Assembly (NCBI GenBank): GCA_016712745.1
Contig: JADJQN010000001.1
Coordinates: 1,009,494 to 1,073,493 of the forward strand
DNA: 64,000 nt
Direction of reading: 5' to 3'
DNA from: Sandaracinaceae bacterium
Lineage (GTDB): Bacteria > Myxococcota_A > Polyangia > Polyangiales > JADJQN01
Positions 29,739 to 56,428 of this stretch are shown here, in pieces. The notes below the pieces were generated by a model that worked only from the letters and a program-made list of their open reading frames with translations, had not been told where the DNA came from and ran no database searches. Within the stretch, counting starts at the first letter, position 1. Every line of letters starts with the position of its first letter. A program made the position numbers and the translations under genes.

Positions 29739-30677
29739 CTAAGGGGCCACGAGCACTTCCGGGGGGTTGGTGCGAACTACTTCGACGGCATCGGGGAGGC
29801 CGCGGACCTGCAAGGGGCGCAGCGCCGCGTTTGAGCCCGCGACGATTCCCTCGAGGTCGACCGTGGGCAAAATCTGATCTTGGTCGAGAGTACGCAGGAT
29901 CGAACGCGGACCGCGCAAGACCACGTCGACGCGAGCCGGGCGAATATCGGCGTGCGCACTACCGCCAACCACCGCAACAAGGAGGTGACGCAAAACGCGT
30001 TCTTCGGTTTCGGGAACGATGTCGAAACGCACGACAACTTGCCCATCGTCCGAATAGCTAAGATGCCCGCGCGCGCGCTCAATCGGCACCGGCAACGAGT
30101 GCGAGCCAATGGCAAAAGTATTGATCTGGATGGGCTCGGTCTGCACCTGTTGAATGCGTCGAACCTCGGCGGCCGGCCCGGACACAACGATGGTCGCCGG
30201 TTCGAAGCGAATGGGGTTACGCACCTCGTAGCCGTCGGTCACGCGCCCCGTAATAGTGGCTACGACTGGAACTCGCTTCTCGGCGCGGTCCGCCCACTCG
30301 AGATCAATCGACTGCGGCGAAACTTGAACCGCTGAAACGCCTGGAGGCAGTGCGAAGGCGTTCACATCGAACGAATAAAACCTTCGCGTCGTATCGCGCA
30401 GGTCGAGTTGCACGGGCGGCAAGGGCTCGCGCGACAAACGATTGAGCAGCGCGCTTCGTCCGCTCAATGTAACGCGCACCGTGTCAGGAATATTCGTGAG
30501 CAGAATGCGGCGGCTCGAGGACGCGGGAGGGATGGTGCTGACTTCAACGGACACGCTCCGCTGCGCGTCGCCCGATCCACGCACGGAAGCAAAGAGCGCA
30601 AGCGACGCTACAAGCGAAAGCGCCTTCAATCCTATGTTCTCGCGAAAGACGCGGGTGAGAAGTTTCTGACGAGGCAT
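29739..30677 (-). CDS. cdaR: YbbR-domain protein (CdaR, regulator of diadenylate cyclase)
   Basis: The ORF is 312 aa. It has an N-terminal TM (IGLKALSLVASLALFASV) followed by repeated YbbR-like beta modules. Its start overlaps the cdaA stop (TGATG). Confidence 0.78.
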   Translation of the reverse strand: MPRQKLLTRVFRENIGLKALSLVASLALFASVRGSGDAQRSVSVEVSTIPPASSSRRILLTNIPDTVRVTLSGRSALLNRLSREPLPPVQLDLRDTTRRFYSFDVNAFALPPGVSAVQVSPQSIDLEWADRAEKRVPVVATITGRVTDGYEVRNPIRFEPATIVVSGPAAEVRRIQQVQTEPIQINTFAIGSHSLPVPIERARGHLSYSDDGQVVVRFDIVPETEERVLRHLLVAVVGGSAHADIRPARVDVVLRGPRSILRTLDQDQILPTVDLEGIVAGSNAALRPLQVRGLPDAVEVVRTNPPEVLVAP

Positions 30678-31657
30678 CAGCTGCTCTCCTCAGGTTTTTC
30701 GCCGAGCTGCGACGCAGGATGAGCGATGCGCTCAAGCGTATCCTCCGAGAGTCGCGGCGCCGGCGGAATCGATGGACTTGGCGGCGGCGGTACTGAACCC
30801 CTAGTCGCGGGAATTGTGACGCGGGCGGTGCTTTCGGGACGCACCGTCGGGCGTTTGCCGGCCTTCTTTTGATAGAAGAGGCCCAGCAAGGCTTCGCGCA
30901 GGCTGTTCGGATCGAGGTTGCGAACCATATTGCCGTTGAAGCAGAGGCTCACTGCCCCCCGCTCCTCCGAGACGACGACAACGACTGCGTCGGTTTCCTC
31001 CGTGATGCCGATGGCTGCGCGGTGGCGCGTACCGAGCGTCTTGTCGAGCTTGGGACTTGCAGTCAGAGGCAGGAACGCGCCGGCTTGCCAAACGCGCTGA
31101 TCCCGAATGACGACCGCACCATCGTGCATGGGATTCTCGAAGCTCGGGATGAAGACGCTGTAAAGAAGCTCGGTCGAAACTTTCGCGTCGAGCGTGGTCC
31201 CCTCTTCGATAAACTCATCAAGGGTCGCGTCGCGCTCGAAGACGATTAACGCGCCGACGCGCTTCTGTCCGAGCATATGCGCCGCTTTTATAACCTCCTC
31301 GATCACTTCGCCTTCTTCGGCGGTGCGCACGGCGCGCAAGAACGGACGGCGACCGAATCGCATGAGCGCGCGGCGAATGTCGTTCTGAAAGACGACGACT
31401 ACAATGATGACGATCGACGCAACGATTCCGTCGAGCAAAGCGTAGAGCGTCATCAGGTCGAGAAAACGCGCAACTTCATAGATGACCAAGATCATCAGCA
31501 GGCCGACGCCCATCTGCATCGCACGCGTGCCGCGTAGCAGAAGCAAGACGCGATAGACGATGAACGCGACGATGAAGATATCGAATACGTCGCGCGCCAT
31601 GGCGAGCGGTGAGCGGTGAAGAAACGCGGTGAAATAGGAGAGGATGGAATCGATCAC
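30677..31657 (-). CDS. cdaA: Diadenylate cyclase CdaA (membrane-anchored DAC domain) with a Pro-rich C-terminal extension
   Basis: The DAC motifs are HDGAVVI and GTRHRAAIGITEETDAVVVVVSEERG, and there are three N-terminal TM helices. The proposed GTG start at 31655-31657 overlaps the folP stop (GTGA). An alternative ATG lies at 31597. The track ORF extension to 31972 lies inside folP. Confidence 0.88.
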   Translation of the reverse strand: MIDSILSYFTAFLHRSPLAMARDVFDIFIVAFIVYRVLLLLRGTRAMQMGVGLLMILVIYEVARFLDLMTLYALLDGIVASIVIIVVVVFQNDIRRALMRFGRRPFLRAVRTAEEGEVIEEVIKAAHMLGQKRVGALIVFERDATLDEFIEEGTTLDAKVSTELLYSVFIPSFENPMHDGAVVIRDQRVWQAGAFLPLTASPKLDKTLGTRHRAAIGITEETDAVVVVVSEERGAVSLCFNGNMVRNLDPNSLREALLGLFYQKKAGKRPTVRPESTARVTIPATRGSVPPPPSPSIPPAPRLSEDTLERIAHPASQLGEKPEESS

Positions 31658-32553
31658 ACGCCCCCCAGGTCGCGCGCGTGCATCGCTGCCAAAGTAAGCT
31701 CTACGGTTTGGCGCATCGGAGCAACGTCGTGAACGCGAACCGCGTGGGCGCCGGCGAGCACGGACATCGTGATAGCCGCAGCGGTGCCCCCTAGTCGGTC
31801 GGTGGGCTGAGGCGTCTCGCCAACCGCGTGGCGCACAGCTTCTGCGATGAAGGATTTGCGTGAAGGCCCAACCAAGACCGGGCGTCCTGTGGAAACGAAT
31901 GCGTCGATATGCGCCAGCAAATGAAGAGACTGCGACCACGTTTTGGCAAATCCCAGACCCGGATCGATCCAAATCTTATGCAGCGGCACGCCCCGCGCGC
32001 ACGCGCGCGCCACTGCCACTTCAAGCTCACGCACAACGTCCCCGACGAGGTCGCTGTACCGCGTCGTGGTCTCATCGATCTGGCCACGGTCGCGCGTATG
32101 CATCAGCACGAGCTCGACGCCGGCTTGCGCGACCACCTGCAAGAGCTCGGCGGACGCTCCGCAGGAAACGTCGTTCACAATCTTCGCGCCCGCGCGAATC
32201 GCTGCGCGCGCAACATCTGCTTTCACAGTGTCGATCGAAACGACGGCGTGATGCTCCCGGCAGAGAATCTCGATTACCGGCGCGGTTCGTCGAATCTCTT
32301 CTTCAACCGAGATAGTTTCGGCGCCGTCGCCGTAGGTTGTGCCTTTGGGCCGGGAGGATTCGCCGCCCACGTCGATGACGTGCGCCCCGCTGCGCAGCAT
32401 CCGAACGCCCTGCTCCACCGCTTTGTCACGCGAAAGAAACTCGCCGCCGTCGCTGAAGGAGTCGGGCGTAACGTTGAGCACGCCCCAAATCGCCACCTGA
32501 TGGCCACGGGATGCAGAATTCGAATGCTCGAGCGAAGTCCCCCCGCGAACCAT
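31654..32553 (-). CDS. folP: Dihydropteroate synthase
   Basis: The ORF is 299 aa. The motifs GVLNVTPDSFSDGG, DVGGESSRP and the pterin-binding barrel pattern are present. Confidence 0.93.
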   Translation of the reverse strand: MVRGGTSLEHSNSASRGHQVAIWGVLNVTPDSFSDGGEFLSRDKAVEQGVRMLRSGAHVIDVGGESSRPKGTTYGDGAETISVEEEIRRTAPVIEILCREHHAVVSIDTVKADVARAAIRAGAKIVNDVSCGASAELLQVVAQAGVELVLMHTRDRGQIDETTTRYSDLVGDVVRELEVAVARACARGVPLHKIWIDPGLGFAKTWSQSLHLLAHIDAFVSTGRPVLVGPSRKSFIAEAVRHAVGETPQPTDRLGGTAAAITMSVLAGAHAVRVHDVAPMRQTVELTLAAMHARDLGGV

Positions 32554-35875: not shown

Positions 35876-37156
35876 ATGCTTAACAAAACATTCGCAAACA
35901 TTGCTGCCGTCACCGTAATGCTCGTCGGCACATCGTGCGCTCAGTCTTTCGAAGTGCTCAGCACAAGCGACGCAGGTGCAGACGGTGGCCCACCCGTAGT
36001 TAGCATAAGCGACGCGGGTGCCGACGCCGCGACACCAGTGCCCCCCGGCTGTGCTGCCCAGGCATTCCATGTGTGCTCGAACGCGTGCACGGATGACATG
36101 TTCCCAACCTACCTTTGGGACGGGAGCCGGTGCGTCGCCGTGTGCCCAATTACGTGCGTCGGTGCTGACTGTGGGAGCGGTTCCTCGAGCCCCCAAGAGT
36201 GCATGAACGCGCACGCGCAGTGTGCGCCTGCACTCTGCGGCCTGACGGGAGGAACCTGGAACCCTGCGCAGGGATGCCCGTACGAATGCGGAGCGCGAAT
36301 CAATGACGTTGGGGGATCCGTCCCTTGCGCCGGCGTCGCGGGATGTCAGTGCGCGCCCGGAGAGACTTTCGACGCGGCGAGCGGCTGCGTCGCGGCCCTT
36401 TCCTGCACACGAACCCAGTTGTGCGAGGCAAGTGGCGGCGAGTGGCGCCAGCCGCGCGACACGGCGCGGCACTTCTACGAATGCGGTGAGGATCTGGCGG
36501 CCGAGTTGGAACCGGCTCCGTCCATTGAAGAGTTCTGCTTCTGCGGGCACGGAGGCACGGCGAGCTCAACGACTCACACCTGTGTTTATGGAGCAGACTG
36601 TCGCGCCCGCGCCAGCGATGAAAGCGATCGGGAGTACGCAGACAACTTGTGTACGAGCAGCGGTGGAACCTGGCACACGACGGATTCAGAACACTCATTC
36701 TGCGGCCTTCGCGGTGGCGTGTCCGGGACGGGAGCATGCGAGTGCGGGCCACTGGAAAACTTCGATGCAAGCGCAGGCTGCGTGATCGACGGGGCGTGCT
36801 ACTCGCGCAGCATTGGTAACAACTGCTCCGCGGCTATCAGCGCATACTGCGAGGGGCCCGACGCGTATTGCGACACAAGCGACCCATTCTCTGGAGCGTA
36901 TACGTGTTCGCTAACCTCGCGGTCGTTCTGCGAAATGCCCGCGCACCGCCCCGAGTGTCAGAACATCGGAACGCGCAGTGAAGGCTGGTACTGGGTGGAC
37001 ACGGGCGATTTGATCTGCTGGACCTCCTGCGCATCAAGCACGCCCGTGTGCGAAACACGCACCGGCGCAGGTGGCACCGGATGGTTCACCGACGACACCT
37101 CCGGCTGCGGCAACGATCCGCCAAGCGCCTTCATCGTCGCTGACACGTGCGCCTAA
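35876..37156 (+). CDS. Secreted Cys-rich repeat protein
   Basis: The start is taken at MLNKTFANIAAVTVMLVGTSCAQS. The 426 aa include a very high Cys count. The motif C-x3-GG-x-W recurs (CGLTGGTW, CEASGGEW, CTSSGGTW). Confidence 0.65.
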   Translation: MLNKTFANIAAVTVMLVGTSCAQSFEVLSTSDAGADGGPPVVSISDAGADAATPVPPGCAAQAFHVCSNACTDDMFPTYLWDGSRCVAVCPITCVGADCGSGSSSPQECMNAHAQCAPALCGLTGGTWNPAQGCPYECGARINDVGGSVPCAGVAGCQCAPGETFDAASGCVAALSCTRTQLCEASGGEWRQPRDTARHFYECGEDLAAELEPAPSIEEFCFCGHGGTASSTTHTCVYGADCRARASDESDREYADNLCTSSGGTWHTTDSEHSFCGLRGGVSGTGACECGPLENFDASAGCVIDGACYSRSIGNNCSAAISAYCEGPDAYCDTSDPFSGAYTCSLTSRSFCEMPAHRPECQNIGTRSEGWYWVDTGDLICWTSCASSTPVCETRTGAGGTGWFTDDTSGCGNDPPSAFIVADTCA

Positions 37157-37360
37157 CGCGGCGGAGGTTTTGAACCGCCAACACGCCAGTGACGCCAGCA
37201 AATTCGAACTCGCCCAAACCTCAAATTCCGAATCTAGGAATTTCTGGTTTTGTGCGCACATGTTTCGCTCGTACTGGCGTTACTGGCGCCTTGGCGGTTA
37301 GCCCTGCCTTGACGGGGAGGACCGTGTTGATTGTTGTGGGGTTTCGATCACAATCGGGGG

Positions 37361-38311
37361 GTGAGCTCGACGCGACGGGATTTCTTGATTTCGACGGGCG
37401 TGGTAGCGGGTGCTGCGCTGCTTGGCTGCAAGCCGAGTCGCGCGCCTGCGCAAGTGAACGTCTCGCAGCGAAGGGTTGCGCAGTTAGTTCCGGGCTTGCC
37501 GAGTGCTGATGGCGCGGGCGTTCGGCTCTCGCGCGTGATCGGTCAGCCGATGCTGCGCAACCTTGACCCTTTCATTCTTCTCGATCGCATTCACTCCGAT
37601 GAGCCGCGCGATTACGCGGCTGGGTTTCCGCAGCATCCACATCGCGGATTTGAAACTGTCACCATCATGCTCGATGGCAACATTGAGCATCGCGATAGCC
37701 GCGGCAATCACGGCATCATCACGGGAGGCGGTGCGCAATGGATGACAGCCGGTCGCGGCATCGTGCATTCCGAGATGCCGGCACAGCGTGAGGGACTATT
37801 CTCGGGCTTTCAGCTCTGGGTGAATCTCCCGGCGCGCGAGAAAATGTGCGCCCCGTATTATCACGACCTCTCGCCGACGGTGATTCGAGAAGCATCGCTT
37901 TCGCAGGCAGGAAGCCACGTTCGCGTGATTGCCGGTCACGTGAGCGGACTCGACGGTCCCGTCCGCGAGCGCCCTACCCAACCAACGTTGCTCACGCTCG
38001 CACTTGAAGACGACACTCCGTTCACCCTCGATGTCGCTCGCGAGAATGCCGCATTTGCGTTTGTGCATCGCGGAAGCGTCGAGATTGGCCGAGATGGTCA
38101 CTCAACGCATGTGCCAGAGGGCACTCTCGCCGTGCTCAGCGCCGGCAATCGCGTGCGGATGCGAGCGCTCACGCAGGCAGCCGGAGTTCTCTTTGCGGCG
38201 GCGCGTCCGATTCACGAACCGATTGTGCAGCGTGGCCCCTTCGTGATGAACAGCGAAGCCGAGATTGAGCAGGCATTCGCTGACTACCGCGCCGGCACGC
38301 TCGGCACGTAG
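37361..38311 (+). CDS. Pirin-family cupin protein with a Tat signal and lipobox
   Basis: The pirin motif is GFPQHPHRGFETVTIMLDG..EHRDS.G and AQWMTAGRGIVHSEMP. The N-terminus (GTG 37361) reads VSSTRRDFLISTGVVAGAALLGC, giving a twin-arginine motif plus lipobox. The track ORF starts at 37331. Confidence 0.85.
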   Translation: MSSTRRDFLISTGVVAGAALLGCKPSRAPAQVNVSQRRVAQLVPGLPSADGAGVRLSRVIGQPMLRNLDPFILLDRIHSDEPRDYAAGFPQHPHRGFETVTIMLDGNIEHRDSRGNHGIITGGGAQWMTAGRGIVHSEMPAQREGLFSGFQLWVNLPAREKMCAPYYHDLSPTVIREASLSQAGSHVRVIAGHVSGLDGPVRERPTQPTLLTLALEDDTPFTLDVARENAAFAFVHRGSVEIGRDGHSTHVPEGTLAVLSAGNRVRMRALTQAAGVLFAAARPIHEPIVQRGPFVMNSEAEIEQAFADYRAGTLGT

Positions 38312-39391
38312 TCACTCGTTTCCTTCGCGACGCCAAATGAAAGCGTCGAGAAAGTAGTGGGTGAGTTGCGGCATGGCCAAGAGCGGCACCAGAAATGCCA
38401 GCGCAGTTTCGCCAACCAGCGGTGCGTGACCGAAGATGTTCGGATGATCGTGCCACACGTAACGATCCCAGAGAGTTTCTTCCACAAACGCGAGTGCAAG
38501 CACCGTCACCAGAAAAGCCGGCCATCCGATGCGCGCAAGCCGTACCAGCGCTCCTTCGCCAAGCTGCGCCGCGCGCCGATCCCCATAACGGAACGTGAGA
38601 AAGAAATACGGGATCCCATGCACCAAGACGTTCATCACCGTGAACGCAAAGTCGGAGTCGAACAAGACGATGCCTACGTACCACGTCAGCGCTGTGGTGC
38701 TCAGCAAGAGCAAACGTCCCCACGCCGGCCGGCCCGTGCTACGCGCGTGCATCGCAAATCGAACGCACCACACCAGCAGCGTTGCCACGTAGAGCGGACG
38801 CACAATGTTGACGACGTCCGGCGCGAGACCCGTGATGAAGTCCCCCTCAAGCATCCACGCGAATCGTCGCGGCAAGCGTGCATGCCAGACGATGAGCGGA
38901 TAAAGCATCGCGATGTAGGCCGCGCCGAGATCAAGCAGGCGCTCGTAAGAACTAATGCTCGGATCGCGACGATGATAGAGGCGCATCCAGCCGACTTGTT
39001 GGCGCACAAAATGAAACACTGCCGTATAGGCAACCACGCGCCAAAACAACAGGGCCGAAAATCCGTACGCGAGCAGCCCCACGAGATATGCGAGCACGGG
39101 TGCACCTACGTAGAGCACGACGCGACGTCTGATTTCCGTCTTGTCCAGATAGACGCGAAATATCGTCGACCAAACGTGTGCCACATCCACTGCGACCACG
39201 CAGAGCAACCACACCCACGCTGGAGTGTCGTGGTGCAAAAGTCCCAGCGCGTAGCCAGCCGCGAGCAACGCGAACGCAAGTGCGGTGCTTCCACCAAAAG
39301 CGAGCAGGTCGGAGCGGCGGCCGAAGAGCCATTCGCGCTGCTCTGAAGATCCGAACGACGCGCGCACGCTACATGCGGGGCCGCCCGTCAC
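38312..39391 (-). CDS. Polytopic membrane protein of unknown function with spaced His motifs, last gene of the polyamine-like operon
   Basis: The proposed GTG start at 39389-39391 overlaps the oxidoreductase stop (GTGA). The 359 aa contain about 9 hydrophobic segments. His-containing motifs are VDVAHVWST, FHFVRQQVGW, VLVHGIPYF and LTHYFLDAFIWRRE. The upstream part of the 449-aa track ORF lies over the oxidoreductase C-terminus in another frame. Confidence 0.6.
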   Translation of the reverse strand: MTGGPACSVRASFGSSEQREWLFGRRSDLLAFGGSTALAFALLAAGYALGLLHHDTPAWVWLLCVVAVDVAHVWSTIFRVYLDKTEIRRRVVLYVGAPVLAYLVGLLAYGFSALLFWRVVAYTAVFHFVRQQVGWMRLYHRRDPSISSYERLLDLGAAYIAMLYPLIVWHARLPRRFAWMLEGDFITGLAPDVVNIVRPLYVATLLVWCVRFAMHARSTGRPAWGRLLLLSTTALTWYVGIVLFDSDFAFTVMNVLVHGIPYFFLTFRYGDRRAAQLGEGALVRLARIGWPAFLVTVLALAFVEETLWDRYVWHDHPNIFGHAPLVGETALAFLVPLLAMPQLTHYFLDAFIWRREGNE

Positions 39392-41024
39392 GCCATCACT
39401 CGCAACGCGTCCACCACCTCGCGCGCCGCCCGCAGCCCTTGCTGAAATGCGTTCTCGAAGAGCGCGATGCCCGACAGATCGGAATGTGCGAAGTGAACGG
39501 CCCCCCGCGGGGCTTGCGCCCGCTGGCGCGCACCGCTCCACAACGCACCAACACGGGGCTGCACCATCCCGTGGCCCCACCGCCACACGTCGATGCGCTC
39601 GACGAAGTCGTCGAGCCCCTGATGCGCGCGGCGCAGGTCGGTCAGCACCGCCTCCTGCCAATCGTGCAGATTGTGCCCGAGCAAACGCCGGCGCCCTTCC
39701 CGCGCATCGGCCTCGGTGAAGGGCAAGTAGTAACTCTATACGGTAGGACCGAACTCTCGTCCTCGCTGATGTGTCGCGCTAACGTAACCAAGTGATGGGC
39801 TGTCGTAGATCACGTTGTCCCATGCGAAAGCGAAACCTCGGCTGCGTGGCCGATCCGAAAGATGCAGATTAGCGACCATCCATGCGCCGTGGTCGAAGCC
39901 ATCGGCCAGCTGCGGCGCATTGCGCAACGACGCCACGACACGCTTGGCGATGAACTGCGGCATCGCGACGATTGCGCGGCGCGCGCGATGAACCACGCGC
40001 TCGTTATTGCGGGTGTCCACGCATGTGACGTGCACAACGCCGTCGCGCTCTGTCACATCTGCGATCAGAAGGAGCTTGCGATTCGATCGCCGACCGCGCG
40101 AGTCAGATGCTTGACGATGGCGCCGTTGCCCTCGGGCCATGTGATCAAATCCTGCGCCTCGCTTGTTGCATCACGCATACGCGCTGCGTAGTAATGGACA
40201 AGCGCCCACGCGCTCGTGGTCATAAGACCCATTCCGAAATCATCGCGACACGCGTATTCGCACAGCCAGCGCAGGCGCGGCGACGTGAAACTCTCCCTGC
40301 GAAGCCAGGCGTCGGCGCTCATACGGTCAAGTTGCGTTGTCTCGCTATCGTCGCTGCTCTCATCGACGGGCACGGCAAACGCGCGGCGGCCGCGAGCGTC
40401 GCGCAGCGCCGCAAACTCGCCCATTCGGCGCTTGAATCGCTCGAGCTGCGCTATGTCTTCAGGCGACGCGCCCGCGTACGGATAGAGACCCGCATACCAA
40501 AAGCCGCGATAGAAATGACGCTCATCGGGCTCGCGAACAAGGCATGCCTCGTCGACTACCGGATCTCCGTCCGAGCTTAGGCCCGTTACAACGCCCATCT
40601 CCCGGAGCAGCGCAATCAGGTCCGCGTTCTCACGAAAGGGAGACGGCAGGTAGTGCGCGCCCCAAGGATAATTCGTAACCGCGCTTGTGCCGAACGCCGA
40701 CGTGCCCCCCGCCTCTCGCTCCAACTCGAGCACGCGCACATCGCGGACTCCCCGACGCAACAGTTCCCACGCAGCGCTCAAGCCCGACGGCCCCCCGCCC
40801 AATACGAGCACGTCGTGCAAAGGACCGGACGCCGCGCTCTGCGCCTCTGCCGACGTCGTCGCGGCATTGCGCAGCAGGTGTCCGTGCTCCATGGAGGGGC
40901 CGCGAAGCGCACCCGCAAGCTCGCGTCGTCGCGTAACCGGCGCATCGCAGCCCGTAGCGGCCAAAGTCGCAACCAGCGGCGCGCCGAGCATGGAGGCCAG
41001 CCACTCACGGCGCGACAGGCTCAT
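39388..41024 (-). pseudogene. Tat-signal FAD-dependent oxidoreductase (amine-oxidase-like fold), disrupted by one frameshift and one in-frame TAG
   Basis: Three track ORFs form one protein: 40065..41024, 39736..40140 and 39388..39726. The Tat/lipobox N-terminus is MSLSRREWLASMLGAPLVATLAATGC. The dinucleotide-binding motif is DVLVLGGGPSGLSAAWEL...LELEREAGG. The frame changes near 40075-40085 (..AVGDRI / KLLLIADVTERDG..). An in-frame TAG at 39736-39738 gives (..REFGPTV*SYYLPFTEADA..). Confidence 0.8.
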
Positions 41025-42541
41025 TCGTACTCACTCCACTCCGCGTCGTAGTAGCGAACGAGCGCCTGCGAGTTCATGTGATTTGTTTCGACCTCGACGG
41101 GGCCGGTGTCCGCGCCAAAAACGAAAAGCGTTGGCAGAATCGCGTCGTTGAGAAAGCGCAGACGCTGCACGTCCAAGCGCGTTGGTACATCGAATGGGAC
41201 GCGTCGCGCCAGCACATAGCCCCACTCGCCGAACGACGGCACAAGCGTGTGGTAGGCACGCGTAGCGAAGCCAGCTTCTGCCATCGTGCGCTCGATGCAC
41301 CAGAAGCTACGCCGGGCGAAAAGCGGCGAAGTGCTTTGAACGACGAGCGCGGTGTCGTCGCGCATGACTTCGCGCAAAATACGATAAAAGCGCGTTGTAT
41401 AGAGCTTGCCGAGTGAAAAATTATTGGGATCCGGGAAGTCCACAATAACCACGTCGAAGGTTCGACCGCGCGCGTCTGCAAGCCAGACCATCGCATCGTC
41501 ATTCACGATGGTGACTCTCGGATCGAGCATTGAGTCGTGGTTCAAGCGTCGCAAAAGCGAAACACGCTTGGCCATGTCCGTGACGCCGTGATCCAAATCC
41601 ACCAGCGTCACGTCCTCAACGTCGCGGTAACGAAACACCTCGCGCAACGCCAGACCATCACCGCCGCCAAGAATTAAGATGTGCTTGTGCTCGGCGGCAA
41701 GCGCCATCGCAGGATGCACGAGTGCTTCGTGGTACCGATACTCGTCGATCGAATTGAACTGAAGGTTGCCGTTGAGCAGGAGCTGAACGCCGCCCTTGCT
41801 TGCAGTCAACACGATACGCTGATACGGCGATTGCTCTGCATAGGCGATCTGAGCGCCGTAGGTTTCTTCCTCGCCGAGCACCTCGATGCGACGCGCGTAG
41901 ATGAAGACGACCACCAGCGCCATCGCGATCACAACAGAGGCGACCCGCAAGCGGATTAGCGTTCCCCGACGTATGAGATCGGCCAGAATAAACGTCGAGA
42001 GCAACGCAACTGCGATGTTCAATAGTCCAAAGAACAGAGAGGTGCGCAGCATGCCGAGCCACGGCACAAGCACCAACGCGAACGCAAGCGAGCCCACGAG
42101 AGCCCCGATATAGTCGAAGGTTAGTACGCGCGAGACGAGCGTTTCGAACTTCAGCTCATCCTTCACGATGCGCATCACGAGCGGGATTTCGAGGCCAACG
42201 AGAGTGCCGATCAAGCCAAGCAGCGCATAGAGCACCGCGCGATACGACGATGCATGCCCCGCAGCTAACCAAAGGATCGGCGCCTCGAAGCCGCCTACGA
42301 TGGCGGTCGCAAGCTCGACGTGGACGAAGGTTTCGGCGACGCGCGCTGTGACATAACCCGACAGCCATGCGCCAATACCCATCGAGAAGAGGTAGACGCC
42401 AATCGTCGTCGAGAACTGCGTAATCGAATCGCCAAGACGCTGGCTCGCAAGCGCCCCGCCAAGAAGCTCGTAGACCAGGCCCGCCGTCGATATGACGAGC
42501 ACAGTCAACATCAGCAGGGGCTGTTTGCGCTTCTTTAGCAC
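41021..42541 (-). CDS. Membrane-anchored polyamine aminopropyltransferase (spermidine-synthase fold fused to an N-terminal multi-TM domain)
   Basis: The ORF is 506 aa, with about 7-8 TM segments in the first 230 aa. The SpeE-type domain follows: YHEALVHPAM, ILILGGGDGLALREV, VTLVDLD, VIVDFPDPNN and LYTTRFY. Its stop overlaps the next start (ATGA). Confidence 0.85.
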   Translation of the reverse strand: MLKKRKQPLLMLTVLVISTAGLVYELLGGALASQRLGDSITQFSTTIGVYLFSMGIGAWLSGYVTARVAETFVHVELATAIVGGFEAPILWLAAGHASSYRAVLYALLGLIGTLVGLEIPLVMRIVKDELKFETLVSRVLTFDYIGALVGSLAFALVLVPWLGMLRTSLFFGLLNIAVALLSTFILADLIRRGTLIRLRVASVVIAMALVVVFIYARRIEVLGEEETYGAQIAYAEQSPYQRIVLTASKGGVQLLLNGNLQFNSIDEYRYHEALVHPAMALAAEHKHILILGGGDGLALREVFRYRDVEDVTLVDLDHGVTDMAKRVSLLRRLNHDSMLDPRVTIVNDDAMVWLADARGRTFDVVIVDFPDPNNFSLGKLYTTRFYRILREVMRDDTALVVQSTSPLFARRSFWCIERTMAEAGFATRAYHTLVPSFGEWGYVLARRVPFDVPTRLDVQRLRFLNDAILPTLFVFGADTGPVEVETNHMNSQALVRYYDAEWSEYE

Positions 42542-42553
42542 TGCGGAAACAGC

Positions 42554-42775
42554 TTATCCGTGCACAGCGGCCGACACGATCATCGCGATGCCGATGATGA
42601 TCGAACCGATCACAATGCCGAGCGCGACGTTCTGATCCTCTTCGATTTCCTTCTTGATCGAAAAGGGCAGCGTCTTTTGCAGAATGAAGAATGCCACTGC
42701 GAAGAAGATGACGCCGATGACGCCAAATACGATGGAGCTCACTGCGGCCCGAACCAATGCGTCCAACTGAATCAT
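42554..42775 (-). CDS. DUF350-like small membrane protein
   Basis: The start is taken at MIQLDALVRAAVSSIVFGVIGVIFFAVAFFILQKTLPFSIKKEIEEDQNVALGIVIGSIIIGIAMIVSAAVHG (73 aa). It has two TM segments and the E-x-x-x-NxA-like loop typical of DUF350/YjfL-type proteins. GGAGG lies 9 nt upstream. Confidence 0.7.
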   Translation of the reverse strand: MIQLDALVRAAVSSIVFGVIGVIFFAVAFFILQKTLPFSIKKEIEEDQNVALGIVIGSIIIGIAMIVSAAVHG

Positions 42776-42777
42776 GA

Positions 42778-42960
42778 TTATTTGCCTCCGAAACCGGTTG
42801 CCCAAAAACTGGGATAAGCACTTCGATTGCCCGCCACTCCGGCAGGCATGTGGTCGCGCGTTCCGTCCGCGCCAAACGGTTGCCACCCTGCGAAGAGCGA
42901 GAACGCATAGCCGCCGATGGCGAGGGCGGTAATCACTGCGTAGATTTTGACGAAGCCCAT
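42778..42960 (-). CDS. 60-aa single-pass membrane protein
   Basis: The sequence MGFVKIYAVITALAIGGYAFSLFAGWQPF... has one TM. A GAGGG RBS lies 8-9 nt upstream. It sits 16 nt after the upstream gene and 2 nt before the DUF350 gene, so operon packing supports it. Confidence 0.55.
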   Translation of the reverse strand: MGFVKIYAVITALAIGGYAFSLFAGWQPFGADGTRDHMPAGVAGNRSAYPSFWATGFGGK

Positions 42961-42976
42961 ATCTCTACCCTCTCGC

Positions 42977-44977
42977 TCAAACTACGTTGGAATTTTCCCA
43001 ACGCTTCTTTTCGTGCTGCAGACGCAAATAAATCCCGATGCCGAAAGGCAGTATCAATAGAAGGAACGCCAGCAGCCACGCGCCTGGTCCGCGCCCGTTC
43101 ACAACGACGCTCAGACTGGCACTCGGTGGAAGCGGCGCGGGCGGCGACGATCCGGCGCCAACGTACGTTTCCCAATCCGTCACGCACCGAATGCTGTAGT
43201 GCCCGGAGTGAACGCGCGAAATGTAATCCGTCGTCGAGCGTTGTCCCTCCGACCAATTCTCGCCGCCGGTGTAGCCGCGGTATTCGCCGGTATCCACGGT
43301 AAACTCGATCACCTCGCCGTTGTCTTCGTTAATCAAGGCGCAGTCGGCACCGACCCAAACGTTCGTAGACGTCGTTGCCAGCGTGACCTCGATCGTGGTG
43401 GGGCCACGACGAACGGTGAACGCATCGGTGTAAGTGACCGCACGATTTGGATCGTTCGCAGCTGGACTGTCACCCGGCACGCCGAAGGCAACCCCGCTGC
43501 CGTCAACGTAGGGCGCTGTCCCCTTCGAGTCGACGTTCAACGCGATATCGCGGAACACCGGCGTGTCAGGGAAGCGCGAGCCGTAAATCACGCTGAGTAT
43601 GATCATCACGACAAGCCCCGCGCCGAAGATCGCTGCCGGGATGCCGAATTTATAGGGATTGGGTGACGCGACGGGGACGCCGTCGCCGTGCAAGTTCACG
43701 GAGAACGCTTTTTCAACTTCGGCCCGCGGCAGGTGCTCGCTGAGCGAGCTGATGATCTCGCTCGGGTTGTACTCGATACTGACGACTCGCGGCGGCGCGA
43801 TGTAGTCGCAGGCACGCACTGTCTCGCCGATTTCAACCTTCCAGTAGAACTCACCGACCACCATGTCGACGTAGGCCTGGTTGTCGAAGAAGCGGCGAAA
43901 GCGTGTTCCCTCGTAAACGACGCCATCGCCAAAAGTACCCTGCTGCACATCGGCGTTTTGAATCGTGCGCGTAAGCATGAACGCGCTGTTGTCTTCGACG
44001 AGCCAGGTATAGCCGCCGCCCGACCCGTAGAGCAGGTACTCGCCCCAATCGTAGCGGTCGCCCTCGACGATGGTGTAACGGCGCATGTAGCCGATCACGA
44101 TATACTCGGTGCCGCGCAAGGTGCCCTTGCTGCCGAGCGCGATGGCCGGCATCGCGAGGTTGCGCCGATCCAAAATGCCTAGAAGCTCGAGCTTGCCCTG
44201 GTTGGTATTGAGCGTGGCGCCGCACGAGCCGCAAATCGCACGCTGCGATTCGGACGGCGCGAATAGAGGGATGGGCGCGCCACAATGCGGACACTGCAGT
44301 CGCGAAACATCGACACGTTGTTCTGGACGCGGCCCGAGCGCCGATGACACCAACTTGACTGCGTCGCCCGGCAGAATGCGCCCGATGTAGAGCGAGGCCG
44401 CTTCAATGTTGTCGCCGAAATCCGCGGTAGCGAATCCGCCGCCGGGCGCCGATAGATCGAGGTAATGGCTGAGCTCTCCGACAGCGAGTGCGGCGTCGAA
44501 CTCGCCCTTTGCGGCAATCAACGTGGATTGTCGCTTTTCGTTGATCATCCACGGACGCGGATCAGAGCCGAGGCGAATCCCGCTCATGCCGACCGCGCTT
44601 TGCTCCCACGTGTGCAATGTGGTGCCTGTCGGATCAACGCGCGACGTTAGGTACCAATTGCCCTGTGCTCCGGCGAGCCACGCAGTCGTGCCATCGTCGA
44701 ATGCGACAAAGAACTCATCCCACGGTCCCATTCCCCAATCGCGCTGCGACCGGCCAGCGACCGTTGCGCTACGCCCATCGATTGCGATGGAGTCCTTCAC
44801 TTCGAACGGTGAAGCGGTCGGGACCAGGTCGGCCATTTTTCCGGTCGCGCGAAAGCCCTGATCGTTTCGAATAACGACGAAGTGACAGTATTCGCACACC
44901 AACGCTGGCGAGCTCGCGAGACCGAAAGAAATCGGCGCGCTGCAATTCGGACACGGCGCCGAGCGCACCCCCATCAT
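42977..44977 (-). CDS. Zinc-ribbon / DUF4178-like repeat membrane protein
   Basis: The start ATG at 44975-44977 overlaps the speH stop (ATGA), giving 666 aa. There are two CxxC...CxxC ribbons (CPNCSAP..CEYCH and CPHCGAP..CGSCG). Each is followed by DUF4178-like modules (WDEFFVAFDDGTTAWLAGAQGNWYL; YDWGEYLLYGSGGGYTWLVEDN; VGEFYWKVEIGE). Then come a TM, a beta-rich extracytoplasmic domain and a C-terminal TM. Confidence 0.7.
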   Translation of the reverse strand: MMGVRSAPCPNCSAPISFGLASSPALVCEYCHFVVIRNDQGFRATGKMADLVPTASPFEVKDSIAIDGRSATVAGRSQRDWGMGPWDEFFVAFDDGTTAWLAGAQGNWYLTSRVDPTGTTLHTWEQSAVGMSGIRLGSDPRPWMINEKRQSTLIAAKGEFDAALAVGELSHYLDLSAPGGGFATADFGDNIEAASLYIGRILPGDAVKLVSSALGPRPEQRVDVSRLQCPHCGAPIPLFAPSESQRAICGSCGATLNTNQGKLELLGILDRRNLAMPAIALGSKGTLRGTEYIVIGYMRRYTIVEGDRYDWGEYLLYGSGGGYTWLVEDNSAFMLTRTIQNADVQQGTFGDGVVYEGTRFRRFFDNQAYVDMVVGEFYWKVEIGETVRACDYIAPPRVVSIEYNPSEIISSLSEHLPRAEVEKAFSVNLHGDGVPVASPNPYKFGIPAAIFGAGLVVMIILSVIYGSRFPDTPVFRDIALNVDSKGTAPYVDGSGVAFGVPGDSPAANDPNRAVTYTDAFTVRRGPTTIEVTLATTSTNVWVGADCALINEDNGEVIEFTVDTGEYRGYTGGENWSEGQRSTTDYISRVHSGHYSIRCVTDWETYVGAGSSPPAPLPPSASLSVVVNGRGPGAWLLAFLLLILPFGIGIYLRLQHEKKRWENSNVV

Positions 44978-45348
44978 TGCGAATGGGCCACAGGGGAAAC
45001 GACGGGTGCAATCCCGCGGGCGAGCAAACGCACTTCGCACGACGTTGCCGAGAGCGCCTTGGTCAGAATTGCTTTCGACTTTTCAGGATCGCCACTCCCG
45101 CACGTGTAGAAATCAACCGCCGCATAACCGCGTTCGGGCCACGTGTGAATCGACACGTGCGACTCCTCGAGGAGGAGCACGCCCGTGACGCCTTGCGGTG
45201 CGAACGCATGCATCATGGCGCCAACGACGGAAGCGCCGGTCGCCAACGCGCATTCCCGAAGCACGGCTTCTAGGCGTACAGCGTCGTTGAGCGCTGCCGC
45301 CTGGCAGCCCCAAAAATCCAAAATCAGGTGACGTCCCCTCGTCTGCAC
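44974..45348 (-). CDS. speH: S-adenosylmethionine decarboxylase proenzyme (pyruvoyl, small SpeH/class-1 type)
   Basis: The ORF is 124 aa. The self-cleavage/active-site motif is VLLLEESHVSIHTWPERGYAAVDFYTCG. Confidence 0.88.
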   Translation of the reverse strand: MQTRGRHLILDFWGCQAAALNDAVRLEAVLRECALATGASVVGAMMHAFAPQGVTGVLLLEESHVSIHTWPERGYAAVDFYTCGSGDPEKSKAILTKALSATSCEVRLLARGIAPVVSPVAHSQ

Positions 45349-45466
45349 GCGCTGGCCCCCGAAAACTCGCGCATTGGTATCCTATCAAGCCTCCGTCGTC
45401 GAGCGCCGTCGGGTTGTCCGTCGAGGTAACGTCTTGTAAGGTCCGCGCCTTGAGCCGAGGGGATCC

Positions 45467-46816
45467 ATGCAAAAGATGCTTCGAATCGCGTGTGTGAGTG
45501 CGTTGGTGTTGGCGGGCTGCTCAACGACACCCGAAATGTCGGTTAACGACGCGGGTGTGGACGCATCGTCCATCGACATGGGGCGCGCCGACGGCGGATC
45601 GCGCGATAGCGGCGCTCCCGACGCCGGGAACGACGCTGGCCCGAGTTGCACAAGCGGTTGCGGCATCGCGCAGGTTGAGGCCGGCTTCTGGCACACCTGC
45701 GCACGTCGCGAGAACGGCCAAGTGCTGTGCTGGGGCAACAACCTCTGGAGTGAGCTCGGCGACAACAGTGGTCGTCACATGACGTGTCCGCCCGTGCATG
45801 AAGGAATCGTCACCGACTGCAGCGTGAATCCCGTTCAGCCCGTTGGCTTCACCGACGCCACGGACATCGCGGTTCATCGCAGCACCAATAGCTGCGCGCG
45901 TCATGCCGATGGAAGCTGGCAGTGCTGGGGCGTTTCGTTCGTCCCCGCCACCGGCATGCCGACTCAGAACGCTTCCCCGGTCAGCTACCCGAGCCTTTCC
46001 GGCGCGGTGCAAGTCGCCAACACGAGCAGCTTCGCCTGCATGATTGTCGCTAGCGGCGCGGTCGAGTGCGTCGGCTACAACGACGGCGGCGAGCTTGGCG
46101 ACGGCACGAACGTGCAGCGCACCTCGCGTGTTGCCAATGGCGTGACTGGCGCAACGCAACTCGACGTTGGATCGAGCCACGCGTGCGCCCTGCTTAGCGA
46201 CGGACACATTTCGTGCTGGGGTAGCAACCAATCCGGGCAGCTGGGCGATGGCATAACCCACGGGACATGCGGAGCAGGTGCGCGCCAGTACGACTGTGCG
46301 CTTACCCCCGTGCAAGTCGCGCTAATCGACGACGCGACTCAAGTGGCCACCGGTGCATCCCACACATGCGCACTGCGCGCTGACCACACGGTGTGGTGCT
46401 GGGGCGGCAACTCGTACGGCGCGCTCGGCTCAGGCGAAGAAGCCGATGAGCTTACGCCCGTCCAAGTAGATGCCCTGAGCAACGTGAGCGCGATCGCCGC
46501 GGGCGACAACAATACGTGCGCGCTCAACGACAGCGGCGCTATCTACTGCTGGGGCGCAAACCAGCGAGGGACACTCGGAGACGGCGCAACGACGCACTCG
46601 GTGTGCAGCGTCGACTCCAACGACTGCAGTCGCGTACCAGTCTCCGTCGCAACGATCGACGACGCCACCGCGATCACCGTGGGCGGCGCGCACGCATGCG
46701 CCATTCGCGGCGATGAGTCGGTTTGGTGCTGGGGCTACAACGTCGACTACCAGCTAGGCGTTTCGCCCAACACCGACATTAACACGCCGACCCAGGTCAC
46801 CTCGCTCAATCCCTAG
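45467..46816 (+). CDS. RCC1-repeat (beta-propeller) lipoprotein
   Basis: The lipobox is VLAGCSTT. There are at least six repeats of the type HTCA...DG.V.CWG.N..G.LGDG. Confidence 0.82.
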   Translation: MQKMLRIACVSALVLAGCSTTPEMSVNDAGVDASSIDMGRADGGSRDSGAPDAGNDAGPSCTSGCGIAQVEAGFWHTCARRENGQVLCWGNNLWSELGDNSGRHMTCPPVHEGIVTDCSVNPVQPVGFTDATDIAVHRSTNSCARHADGSWQCWGVSFVPATGMPTQNASPVSYPSLSGAVQVANTSSFACMIVASGAVECVGYNDGGELGDGTNVQRTSRVANGVTGATQLDVGSSHACALLSDGHISCWGSNQSGQLGDGITHGTCGAGARQYDCALTPVQVALIDDATQVATGASHTCALRADHTVWCWGGNSYGALGSGEEADELTPVQVDALSNVSAIAAGDNNTCALNDSGAIYCWGANQRGTLGDGATTHSVCSVDSNDCSRVPVSVATIDDATAITVGGAHACAIRGDESVWCWGYNVDYQLGVSPNTDINTPTQVTSLNP

Positions 46817-46854
46817 GCGCAGGCCGGAATCGCGCGGGCGCGTTCGAATTCTTC

Positions 46855-48234
46855 GTGTATGATTCGTCCATGCGTTTGGGGCGAATCGCGATCTTACCTC
46901 TCGCCGTCTTGCTCCTCGCAAGCGCGCCGGGCAGCTTCGACGGCTGCTCCTGCACGGCCGAGGTGCCAACGCCTCTCCCGCGCGTTGACGCTGGCTTCTG
47001 CAGCGCGGACGACGAATGCCCTCACGAGATATGCGCCGACGTGCGCTGCATTGCCGGTTCCTGCATCCAGATTTCGAGCGCGATCGATCGCGACCGCGAC
47101 GGACACTCTCCCGCCCCGTGCGGCGACGACTGCAACGACGGCGACGCGTTCATTTACACCGGCGCGACCGAGCTGTGCGACGGCGTCGACAATGATTGCG
47201 ACGGCGAGCGCGACGAAAACGCAGACTACGCGACGGACGTTGTCGAGCTCTCGGACGGCAGCGCCAATACTGTCGTCGTTCCGTGGACCCCCGAGTTCAT
47301 GATCACGACCGGAAGCAATCCTATCTTGGGCCGACGCATGGACCGCTTCGGAAACTTGAGCGCGCCCATGTCCCTCTTCCGAGGTCCAGCGAGCATGCTA
47401 AGGGCAGTGGCGAACTCGAGCGGAGCGGTCTTGCTCGTGACCGTCGGTGAACTCGCAGACGAAATCTACTTCGTCACGCTGACGCCCGACGCAAGTGGCC
47501 TCGCCATGATCTCAGCGGAACACTCGATCTCGGTAGCTGGCGCGGTCACGAACATCGAACTCACGCACAACGGCGAAGTCTGGGGCCTCGTCTATGACGT
47601 CACCAACGGCGAGGCGTATTCGCGCTCGCTCGTTCGTATTGCTGATGGCGAAGACGCATCGACGCAAACCAGCATTCCTCTCGAGAGCGAAGCGCTTTCG
47701 CCGAACGGCATCGGCATTACGTCCCACGCGGACGGTTTCGCAGTCACCGACAACGGCAACCACGTTCACCTGGTCGACGCGCTGGGCGTGATAGCGAGCT
47801 CGATCGATGCACCCGATGCGTCGCTTCGATTCGCTGAAGGGCCGCTCGCCTCACTCACCGGTCATCTGGTCATCGCTTACGAGGAGGGTCCTAGCCCGTC
47901 GGCAGACTACCCCGTCTTCGCACGCTTCGCGGATGTCGGAACTGCGCTCACCTGGGAAACAGTGACCGCAGTGGGTTCGGAAGCAAGCTTGGGGGCACTG
48001 TCCATTGCGGGGGCGGGACAAACGCTAGTCGCCTGGCGTGGCTCGGCCTCGCACACGGACGTGTCAGTCTTCGACGACACAGGAACGTTCGTGTTTAGGC
48101 AAAGCGTTCGACACGCCGGCAATGTTGTTGGGCCACGCACCTTGGCCGAGCGAGGAAATACGCTCGTCGTGGTCGAGCAACACGCGGTGCAACCCGCAAC
48201 CGCGATCTTCGTCCGGTCGTGCGTCTCGCACTAG
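46855..48234 (+). CDS. Secreted protein with a Cys-rich 'putative metal-binding motif' (DxDxDG...CxDCxD...CDGxDNDCDG) N-terminal module
   Basis: The signal peptide is MRLGRIAILPLAVLLLASAP, with a possible start at 46870. The motif reads DRDRDGHSPAPCGDDCNDGDAFIYTGATELCDGVDNDCDGERDEN. The remainder is beta-rich with no recognised motif. Confidence 0.7.
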   Translation: MYDSSMRLGRIAILPLAVLLLASAPGSFDGCSCTAEVPTPLPRVDAGFCSADDECPHEICADVRCIAGSCIQISSAIDRDRDGHSPAPCGDDCNDGDAFIYTGATELCDGVDNDCDGERDENADYATDVVELSDGSANTVVVPWTPEFMITTGSNPILGRRMDRFGNLSAPMSLFRGPASMLRAVANSSGAVLLVTVGELADEIYFVTLTPDASGLAMISAEHSISVAGAVTNIELTHNGEVWGLVYDVTNGEAYSRSLVRIADGEDASTQTSIPLESEALSPNGIGITSHADGFAVTDNGNHVHLVDALGVIASSIDAPDASLRFAEGPLASLTGHLVIAYEEGPSPSADYPVFARFADVGTALTWETVTAVGSEASLGALSIAGAGQTLVAWRGSASHTDVSVFDDTGTFVFRQSVRHAGNVVGPRTLAERGNTLVVVEQHAVQPATAIFVRSCVSH

Positions 48235-54634: not shown

Positions 54635-54734
54635 AAGGGACAGCGGGCTGACCTTAACACGTGTCCCTAAATAACAGCAACACGCTTTGGTTTCGCAAAC
54701 CCAGGCGATTATTCACAGTATACTGACCGCCCCC

Positions 54735-55643: not shown

Positions 55644-56428
55644 GCACGCCGGCGTTTCGGACGATTCTTTATACCGTCGCCGACCACGTGGCGACGATCA
55701 CACTCAACCTTCCCGACCGCAAAAATGTGATTGGCGTCGAGATGGCCAACGAGCTTGTGGTCGCCGTGGACGAAGCGGCAGGCGATGCGAATGTGCGCGC
55801 GATCGTGCTCACGGGCGCAGGCAGCGTTTTTTGCGCAGGCGGTGACCTGGCGGGAATGCCCACAGGCAGCGATGCGCATAAGCCGCTCGCGATGCGAGGC
55901 GACTTTGGCGCACTGCTCATACGCCTCGCCGAAATTGAGAAACCGACCGTCGCGCGCGTGCAAGGTCCGGCGATGGGCGGGGGCTTGGGTCTCCTCGCGA
56001 GCTGCCACATCGCAATCGCATGCGAGAGTGCAACTTTTGCGACGCCGGAAATCAAGCGTGGTTTTTTCCCATTCATGATTTCCGCCGTGCTCGAGCGAGT
56101 GATGCCGCGCCGCAAGATGATGGAAATGATTTTGCTGGGCGAGAAGATGAGCGCGCACGAGGCGCGCGAGGCCGGATTGCTTACGCGCGTCGTGCCTGAC
56201 TCGGAGCTAGATGCGATTGTCAGCAACATCGCAAGGAGTCTCGCTGAGCTGTCGCCCTCGGCCGTGCGAACGGGCCTCTCAGCCCTGCAGGACAATGTAG
56301 ACTCATCGCTGCGTGACTCCGTGCCGCGCCTACGCGACGCGCTCATTGCGGCCCTCGCGACCGAGGACGCTCGCGAAGGCATCGCCGCATTCCTAGAAAA
56401 GCGGAAACCGAACTGGACGGGGCGCTAA
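55640..56428 (+). CDS. Enoyl-CoA hydratase/isomerase (crotonase) family protein
   Basis: The ATG overlaps the upstream stop (ATGA). The sequence reads MSTPAFRTILYTVADHVATITLNLPDRKNV..., with VFCAGGDL and the oxyanion-hole pattern, and has 262 aa. The longer track ORF (55019) lies inside the previous gene. Confidence 0.85.
   Translation: MSTPAFRTILYTVADHVATITLNLPDRKNVIGVEMANELVVAVDEAAGDANVRAIVLTGAGSVFCAGGDLAGMPTGSDAHKPLAMRGDFGALLIRLAEIEKPTVARVQGPAMGGGLGLLASCHIAIACESATFATPEIKRGFFPFMISAVLERVMPRRKMMEMILLGEKMSAHEAREAGLLTRVVPDSELDAIVSNIARSLAELSPSAVRTGLSALQDNVDSSLRDSVPRLRDALIAALATEDAREGIAAFLEKRKPNWTGR

Follow-up and report, generated by a model that had tools for sequence, protein, structure and literature searches.

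A tightly packed operon of seven genes (g1 to g7) occupies the minus strand from position 45348 down to 38312 of a 64,000-nucleotide (nt) stretch of DNA, hereafter the window, from a metagenome-assembled genome (MAG) of a Sandaracinaceae bacterium (Myxococcota; locus-tag prefix IPK60). The operon is of a widespread and already published kind (Ravi et al., 2024; PMC11237479), and it probably supplies decarboxylated S-adenosylmethionine (dcSAM) to a membrane-embedded aminopropyltransferase that works outside ordinary spermidine synthesis. This favoured mechanism rests on gene identity, targeting signals and genomic context. In order of transcription, the genes are predicted to specify the S-adenosylmethionine decarboxylase SpeD (g1), a membrane protein with two DUF4178 modules (g2), a micro-protein ending in Gly-Gly-Lys (GGK; g3), a DUF350 protein (g4), a spermidine synthase-type (SpeE) enzyme fused to a membrane domain (g5), a flavin amine oxidase (g6) and a polytopic protein that matches no family model (g7).

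The layout was read from a listing of open reading frames (ORFs) and directly from the strand. Four-base overlaps join g1 to g2 (ATGA at 44974-44977, which includes the g2 start ATG and the g1 stop), g5 to g6 (ATGA, 41021-41024) and g6 to g7 (GTGA, 39388-39391), while spacers of 16, 2 and 12 nt separate g2 from g3, g3 from g4 and g4 from g5 respectively. An earlier note on this DNA had described the same six junctions, and all proved exact on re-reading. Its count of seven ORFs stood in part: the frames of g1 (124 amino acids, aa), g2 (666 aa), g3 (60 aa), g4 (73 aa), g5 (506 aa) and g7 (359 aa) are open at the lengths it gave, but g6 falls into three pieces, a disruption that it had missed. 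When the assignments to AdoMet_dc, DUF4178, DUF350, Spermine_synth and Amino_oxidase were checked with hidden Markov models (HMMs), every one passed its model. The order of the genes recurs in relatives, where the SpeE-fusion protein is 56-87% identical, and in several other phyla; because the same order returns in both, it is beyond what chance would give.

How widely the set is shared was surveyed from g7. A scan with the g7 alignment, taking one genome per species, returned at least 592 genomes, with carriers in Myxococcota, Acidobacteriota (Pyrinomonadaceae, Chloracidobacterium, Blastocatellia and Vicinamibacteria), Planctomycetota, Bradymonadia and others. Partner genes were then counted at 45 g7-anchored loci with at least 8 kb of sequence upstream of g7, g3 being surveyed separately. 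The oxidase lies directly upstream of g7 at 39 of the 45 loci, and the transmembrane (TM) SpeE fusion is found near g7 at 38, DUF350 at 37, DUF4178 at 34 and SpeD at 30. All five partners stand in the same order at 30 loci, in keeping with the co-occurrence across phyla for which the earlier note had proposed to look, and g7 occurs alone at six. The further claim that the coupling is obligate did not hold. Besides the six loci with g7 alone, locus L084, on a 6.1-Mb contig, carries g1 to g6 with a gene for a sigma factor of the extracytoplasmic function (ECF) type (13161-13970) in place of g7, and four others (L004-L006 and L040) keep DUF350, SpeE, oxidase and g7 and are without SpeD, DUF4178 and the small peptide. 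The set is thus a conserved module made up of a core and optional members; the seven genes do not form an obligate unit.

Two of these variants carry further genes. The ECF-type sigma-70 gene of L084 may be a regulator of the module. At L005 the reduced cluster (5677-11014) is preceded by genes for a two-TM protein of 193 aa and for SurA-like proteins; the 193-aa protein was tested as a possible free-standing counterpart of the C-terminal region of g2, and the match was not significant (E 0.26).

The first gene (44974-45348) encodes a pyruvoyl S-adenosylmethionine decarboxylase (AdoMetDC) proenzyme of class 1b, as assigned by HMMs and by alignment with the Thermotoga maritima enzyme (1tlu). 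It scored 122.9 bits against PF02675 (cut-off 25) and 128.3 bits against the TIGR03330 equivalog (cut-off 75.65). Residues 1-106 align with 1tlu, and the aligned region covers the self-cleavage motif ESH(V/L)(S/T)IHTWPE, the catalytic His and the TCG cysteine; LLEESHVSIHTWPE and FYTCG of g1 pair with ISESHLTIHTWPE and LFTCG of 1tlu. By its sequence, g1 bears every hallmark of a class 1b AdoMetDC. Neofunctionalised AdoMetDC homologues that decarboxylate arginine or ornithine exist (PMC10407285). Because g1 adjoins a SpeE-type gene, a role as AdoMetDC rather than as arginine or ornithine decarboxylase would be favoured.

The predicted consumer of dcSAM is g5 (41021-42541), in which HMMs, motifs and an AlphaFold2 (AF2) model delimit a polytopic domain with seven hydrophobic segments (aa 1 to ~217) followed by a SpeE-type aminopropyltransferase domain (aa ~225-450). 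The protein matches NF002956/PRK03612 over profile positions 15-521 of 522 (614.8 bits, cut-off 472), NF037959, 'fused MFS/spermidine synthase', at 53.4 bits (cut-off 40), and PF01564 at 125.7 bits. The YHE, GGGDG, DDA and DFPDP motifs are invariant across 38 homologues, and the corresponding residues, Y270-H271-E272, G292-G296 (GGGDG), D317, D349-A350 and D368-F-P-D371-P, align with 1uir and 7xif. The AF2 model is of high confidence (pLDDT 90), and its C-terminal domain superimposes on 1uir, 3anx, 7xif, 6bq2, 1jq3 and 3o4f with Foldseek target TM-scores of 0.73-0.81 and root mean square deviations of 2-3 Å. By both motif alignment and superposition, then, the domain keeps the residues that bind dcSAM, whose loss would have undone the assignment made in the earlier note. 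The closest structural matches are the Thermus thermophilus triamine/agmatine aminopropyltransferase, Pyrobaculum calidifontis SpeE and a thermospermine synthase. Since these best relatives are broad-acceptor enzymes, an acceptor larger than putrescine is compatible with the structure. Within the membrane domain, E25, E118, D143, Y24, Y50, Y105 and Y144 are invariant, and such acidic and Tyr residues are what might be expected of a site for a cationic ligand.

Between g1 and g5 lie three genes for small or composite membrane proteins. Two PF13785 matches and hydropathy define g2 (42977-44977, 666 aa), which is laid out as two cytoplasmic Zn-ribbon plus DUF4178 modules, a TM segment at 446-464, a domain of ~160 aa, a second TM segment at 633-651 and a short basic tail. 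Both DUF4178 modules pass the cut-off of 25 bits, the first (aa 62-189) with 28.9 and the second (aa 281-414) with 70.2. A CxxC...CxxC ribbon precedes each of them, with weak matches to Zn-ribbon models; the segment 465-632, a predicted non-cytoplasmic domain, has no match in Pfam, and both TM segments are backed by hydropathy. The fourth gene (42554-42775, 73 aa) is a DUF350 protein of the YjfL family, assigned by PF03994 at 47.8 bits (cut-off 26) over profile positions 5-65 of 133, that is, about one half of the profile; hydropathy backs its two TM helices.

The third gene (42778-42960), annotated at NCBI as hypothetical protein IPK60_04545, was defined by its position, alignment and homologues as a single-span micro-protein of 60 aa that ends in GGK. 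No family in Pfam, NCBIfam or PADLOC matches it. An ORF of 49-72 aa sits between the DUF4178 and DUF350 genes at 44 of 50 loci. Its products have basic residues at the N-terminus, then a single hydrophobic helix, which a lipobox replaces in a few members, and then a tail with many Arg, His and aromatic residues. The only invariant columns of the alignment are G58, G59 and K60, with the stop codon directly after, and the GGK ending is present in 42 of 43 database homologues. The peptide keeps company with DUF4178: among 41 informative loci, 36 have both and four have neither, one has DUF4178 without the peptide, and at none does the peptide occur without DUF4178. Position and size make it probable that the g3 family corresponds to the 'Ctha_1186 lipoprotein' described by Ravi et al. 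(2024). Among possible amine acceptors, K60 of g3 is, we infer, the most concrete candidate, because it is a conserved C-terminal Lys on a tiny membrane-tethered protein inside an operon for aminopropyl transfer.

The oxidase gene g6 (39388-41024) is a member of the flavin amine-oxidase family with a twin-arginine translocation (Tat) signal and a lipobox, recognised from HMM pieces and an orthologue alignment. Its N-terminus reads MSLSRREWLASMLGAPLVATLAATGC, and the window carries SRREWL...LAATGC. The twin-arginine motif [ST]RRx[hydrophobic]L is present in 56 of 57 orthologues, and a canonical lipobox Cys follows ~20 residues past the RR in at least 48 of the 57, most of the others being non-canonical. 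At the level of motifs it is well supported that the g6 orthologues are predicted periplasmic, Tat-dependent lipoproteins; Tat export of the oxidase, as the earlier note had proposed, is thereby sharpened to export as a lipoprotein.

Taken with these identities, the favoured mechanism would run as follows. The product of g1 would make dcSAM in the cytoplasm. Working at or across the inner membrane, g5 would transfer the aminopropyl group of dcSAM to some amine that is not putrescine, with the g5 membrane domain conducting either the cationic product or the donor. An exported flavoenzyme of the g6 type would then oxidise the resulting amine in the periplasm, for turnover or reversal of the reaction, while g2, g3 and g4 might form a membrane-spanning scaffold or sensor, or a substrate carrier. 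In this genome the oxidase step would have been lost through two mutations, so that the module would run without periplasmic oxidation, and translational coupling into g7 would have been lost through the broken g6. An envelope-directed, non-canonical aminopropyl module, as put forward in the earlier note, is a reasonable view that agrees with published work (PMC11237479); the links to lipid head groups and to membrane stress that it added found no support in our analysis.

Several points weigh against this mechanism. The NCBIfam equivalog that g5 matches is called 'polyamine aminopropyltransferase', and g5 keeps the two Asp of the DxxD motif at the acceptor site, for which reasons a normal polyamine acceptor may still be the right one; any acceptor named for g5 would be a candidate drawn from gene content. 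The match of g6 to solved amine oxidases is at superfamily level only (E ~1e-3). The oxidase is broken here and is hence dispensable at least in this genome. The charges of the g3 tail do not settle which way it points, and the lipobox that would mean a periplasmic tail is found in few members only. The placement of the SpeE domain of g5 relative to the membrane is likewise equivocal: loop charges would favour the outside, and the cytoplasmic location of dcSAM would favour the inside. Finally, DSSP assignment on the AF2 model merges hydrophobic segments 5 and 6 of g5 into one 54-residue helix (132-185), which makes the TM count six or seven.

The first of these points bears directly on an alternative in which g1 and g5 carry out ordinary polyamine synthesis at the membrane, a free di- or triamine being turned into spermidine, norspermidine or spermine. 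The membrane domain would then only anchor the enzyme or export its product to coat the envelope, and the oxidase would catabolise excess polyamine. That g5 passes the polyamine aminopropyltransferase equivalog at 614.8 bits, keeps every catalytic and donor-binding motif of SpeE and fits the fold well is all as this alternative predicts. It offers no reason, however, why DUF4178, the GGK peptide and DUF350 should be so strictly linked to these genes, and Ravi et al. (PMC11237479) cite Li et al. (2019) for 'other substrates'. We regard ordinary synthesis as unlikely, and favour transfer to a different acceptor.

The topology of g5 bears on a second alternative, in which the transfer takes place outside the cytoplasm. 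Seven hydrophobic segments are seen in the hydropathy profile. The mean number of Lys plus Arg residues, taken over 121 homologues, is 2.0 in the N-terminal tail and 0.2, 1.9, 0.6, 2.6, 1.0 and 3.4 in loops 1 to 6 respectively; the 15 aa after TM7 hold 0.9 on average, together with 3.9 Asp plus Glu. With seven spans, these loop charges would place the SpeE domain outside the membrane (N-in/C-out). With six spans the domain would be cytoplasmic, but the most basic loop would then lie outside. A periplasm-facing SpeE domain, to which dcSAM is delivered by its own 7-TM domain, could modify the epsilon-amine of the g3 C-terminal Lys or another envelope amine (lipid head group or peptidoglycan), and the Tat-exported flavoenzyme could remove or oxidise the modification. 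Besides the positive-inside statistics, the invariant acidic and aromatic residues of the membrane domain would suit a cationic ligand, the oxidase is predicted to be periplasmic, and g3 ends in an invariant GGK and stop, with a lipobox in some members that puts the tail in the periplasm. There are analogies as well: Braun's lipoprotein has a reactive C-terminal Lys, and deoxyhypusine, an N-epsilon-aminoalkyl-lysine, is a polyamine-derived protein modification. Against this, dcSAM is a cytoplasmic metabolite, and we know of no periplasmic enzyme that depends on SAM or dcSAM. The single AF2 helix at 132-185 would leave six TM helices and put the SpeE domain in the cytoplasm. The co-variation of g3 is with the DUF4178 protein, the modules of which are cytoplasmic, and not with g5, and four loci keep g5, g6 and g7 without g3. 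The charges of the g3 tail, moreover, leave its orientation unfixed. We consider extracytoplasmic aminopropylation distinctly improbable. Its most specific form, a hypusine-like envelope modification in which SpeE (possibly facing the periplasm) aminopropylates the GGK lysine, the flavoprotein erases the mark, and DUF4178, DUF350 and g7 sense and scaffold, is a long shot. If this form held, dcSAM would for the first time be seen to serve in modifying a protein, and aminopropyl transfer to take place beyond the cytoplasm.

The state of g6 raises a different doubt, namely whether the operon in this lineage still works. The span 41024-39388 is 1637 nt long (remainder 2 on division by three) and has five stops in one frame. 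It divides into a first piece at 40065-41024 (319 aa), a second at 39736-40140 in another frame and a third at 39388-39735, in the frame of the second and following an in-frame TAG. Orthologues are intact at L001 (545 aa), L002 (544 aa), L003 (554 aa) and L084; the SpeE-fusion proteins of L001, L002 and L003 share 70%, 87% and 84% identity with g5 respectively. A MAFFT DNA alignment against L001-L003 and a change of frame in tblastn place the frameshift at 40065-40090 on the minus strand. MAFFT puts a 1-nt deletion between 40080 and 40079, the exact base being uncertain in this variable stretch; the first frame runs on to a TGA stop at 40065-40067. The second lesion, found by tblastn and DNA alignment, is the TAG at 39736-39738 on the same strand, where L001-L003 have TGG, the Trp codon of a conserved VWTYYLP. 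A search for an intact amine-oxidase ORF accordingly found domain pieces interrupted by the frameshift and the TAG: NAD_binding_8, DAO and Amino_oxidase (29.6 bits, cut-off 19.8) recognise the N-terminal piece, and the C-terminal piece aligns with the last part of Amino_oxidase (PF01593) at 17.6 bits, below the cut-off. Weak matches to the PigB and HpnE models were also seen.

Programmed frameshifting or recoding was rejected as an explanation, the orthologue frames being continuous and the TAG site being a Trp codon in them. An assembly error is disfavoured: pairs of overlapping ORFs that raised a like suspicion elsewhere in the window turned out to be separate full-length genes, and an ORF of 1539 aa is intact. 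A recent pseudogene is the simplest reading of g6, though a consensus error in a long-read MAG may also account for the lesions. Two independent disabling lesions, in a window otherwise without frameshifts of the assembly type, are what one would see if the operon were a decaying remnant, its intact-looking genes no longer working as a system. Yet six of the seven genes are intact, with motifs and 4-nt overlaps preserved, and natural variants that lack single accessory genes exist. Identity of g6 to L002 is ~62-70%, in the same range as for g2 and g7, and any inactivation must on that account be recent; the lesions could, besides, be the consensus errors just mentioned. Decay of the whole operon is the least probable of the readings weighed here, and we continue to favour a module working on an acceptor other than putrescine.

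The last gene, g7 (38312-39391), encodes a ~10-helix protein of 359 aa for which no family model was found; no match appeared in Pfam, NCBIfam or PADLOC. Its family comprises ~1,500 clusters at 90% identity, all named 'hypothetical', and 2,176 representatives at 50% identity (E<=1e-3). The AF2 model (pLDDT 90.7, pTM 0.88) has about ten long helices, and in or beside them lie 16 invariant polar residues, five of them His: D69, H72, R79, H127, R130, Q131, Q132, H170, D184, N254, H258, E304, E305, D309, H345 and D349. Foldseek of the model against the PDB gave nothing (best E 0.23, TM-score < 0.3), and a profile search of PDB sequences gave no match. An enzyme, a transporter or a redox partner of the flavoprotein are candidate roles; the five invariant His led us to consider that g7 might be a di-haem cytochrome b.

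Some g7 homologues occur in other settings. Two single proteins, P0247 (1278 aa) and P0285 (990 aa), have the g7 domain fused to M1 aminopeptidase or LptD and are probably artefacts of read-through or gene calling. At L058 (Archangium minus Cbm 6, a myxobacterium in culture; NZ_CP043494.1, 9983-13315) a stand-alone homologue lies directly upstream of a fused trehalose-6-phosphate synthase/phosphatase (OtsA/OtsB), and polyamine genes are absent within 10 kb of it. The loci with g7 alone have no consistent neighbours.

Signals for expression of the operon were sought in and around it. A 118-nt intergenic region at 45349-45466, between g1 and a divergent gene for an RCC1-repeat protein, is by its position the presumed promoter region, and no sigma-70-like site was found in it. 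A riboswitch or leader RNA was rejected, an Rfam search of 37000-47000 at E<=1 having given no match. Within the operon, one promoter-like site was seen where 1.6 are expected. The 17 weak terminator-like sites (9 ± 3.6 expected) are uninformative, because all of these lie within coding sequence and many are antisense. PADLOC defence matches to the methyltransferase fold of g5 and the FAD motif of g6 were rejected as generic fold matches.

On the far side of g7, a convergent pirin homologue (Pirin plus Pirin_C; 37331-38311, plus strand) abuts the operon, the two stop codons meeting at 38311/38312. Its N-terminus (…SSTRRDFLISTGVVAGAALLGC…) resembles a twin-arginine signal combined with a lipobox, an unusual feature among pirins. 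Divergent from g1 are the RCC1-repeat gene (45467-46816, plus strand) and one for a Cys-rich protein with a MopE-type metal-binding motif (46855-48234, plus strand); as RCC1-repeat and MopE-type genes flank the operon in L002 and L003 too, synteny reaches past the operon. Full-length genes elsewhere in the window include a cytochrome b/c fusion (19275-20966, minus strand), a CdaA-type diadenylate cyclase beside a pterin-binding (FolP-like) gene (30677-32553, minus strand) and a BKACE enzyme beside an enoyl-CoA hydratase (54687-56428, plus strand).

The question on which the module bears is the use to which dcSAM is put in bacteria that have AdoMetDC together with a membrane-fused SpeE-like enzyme. 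The SpeE-fusion family counts at least 8,000 protein clusters and presumably reaches Mycobacterium tuberculosis. Comparison of the loci singles out the GGK micro-protein as a concrete candidate acceptor, indicates that the flavoenzyme partner is a predicted Tat lipoprotein nearly throughout its family (RR in 56/57), and raises the possibility of an extracytoplasmic transferase domain. These three features and the g7 family are the parts worth following. In the literature search, neither the GGK peptide family and its co-variation with DUF4178, nor the g7 family, nor an outside placement of the SpeE domain was found described. DUF4178 was found only in the paper of Ravi et al. (PMC11237479) and its preprint, and no experimental follow-up was found. 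The arrangement, which the earlier note had taken to be unexplored, is functionally still unsolved, but the gene association itself was already published (PMC11237479).

The operon described there (Ravi et al., 2024, mSystems; PMC11237479) consists of a 7TM-SpeE fusion, YjfL/DUF350, a small novel lipoprotein ('Ctha_1186') and DUF4178, usually with a CesT-PspA pair, and its variants encode AdoMetDC and a polyamine oxidase; the authors propose that polyamines are monitored or, with reference to Li et al. (2019), that there is 'aminopropylation of other substrates', and they cite the same paper for the AdoMetDC linkage. The window shares with it the 7TM-SpeE, DUF350 and DUF4178 proteins (by HMM), and g3 is probably its small lipoprotein. 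It differs in that no PspA or CesT gene lies within 38312-45348, and neither PF04012 nor CesT was found in the Pfam-annotated flanks of L001, L002, L003 and L084 (up to 10 kb on each side, less at contig ends; no PspA scan was made of the remainder of the 64-kb window). Its DUF350 protein is a half-size form with two TM helices, not the 4- or 8-TM form, its DUF4178 is duplicated and fused to a non-cytoplasmic domain between two TM segments, and it adds g7. We conclude that the window holds a PspA-less member of a published, functionally unsolved module.

A related set of clusters has been reported on the basis of AdoMetDC. Thousands of bacterial genomes are said by Li, Kurihara, Kim, Liang and Michael (2019, Biochem J 476:2579) to pair a class 1b AdoMetDC with a fusion of a membrane domain and spermidine synthase (SpdSyn) and with DUF350. 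These AdoMetDCs are reportedly active in species without spermidine, the fusion reportedly fails to complement an Escherichia coli speE deletion, and an aminopropyl acceptor other than putrescine is said to have been proposed; the reported lack of spermidine and of complementation would speak against ordinary polyamine synthesis. The window resembles those clusters in having class 1b AdoMetDC beside the membrane-SpeE fusion and DUF350, and all three (AdoMetDC, membrane-fused SpdSyn-like protein and DUF350) are present in one cluster here, for which, too, putrescine is probably not the acceptor; it differs in that its oxidase is inactivated.

The other comparisons are with single components. 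The spermidine dehydrogenase SpdH of Pseudomonas aeruginosa (7d9f) is periplasmic and belongs to the same flavin amine-oxidoreductase superfamily, the match to g6 being weak and confined to the FAD-binding motif (E ~5e-3), whereas g6 orthologues are lipoproteins of ~545 aa without a recognised haem domain. Braun's lipoprotein, with its reactive C-terminal Lys, and deoxyhypusine are analogies only, with no sequence relationship to g3, a small membrane-anchored protein in which the C-terminal end, including its Lys, is the sole strictly conserved feature. Compared with the canonical SpeD/SpeE pathway, the predicted chemistry is the same, a pyruvoyl AdoMetDC followed by dcSAM-dependent transfer, as are the GGGDG, YHE and DxxD motifs and the fold; the transferase of the window, however, is fused to a membrane domain and linked to five membrane or periplasmic partners, and its nearest solved relatives are broad-acceptor rather than putrescine-specific enzymes.

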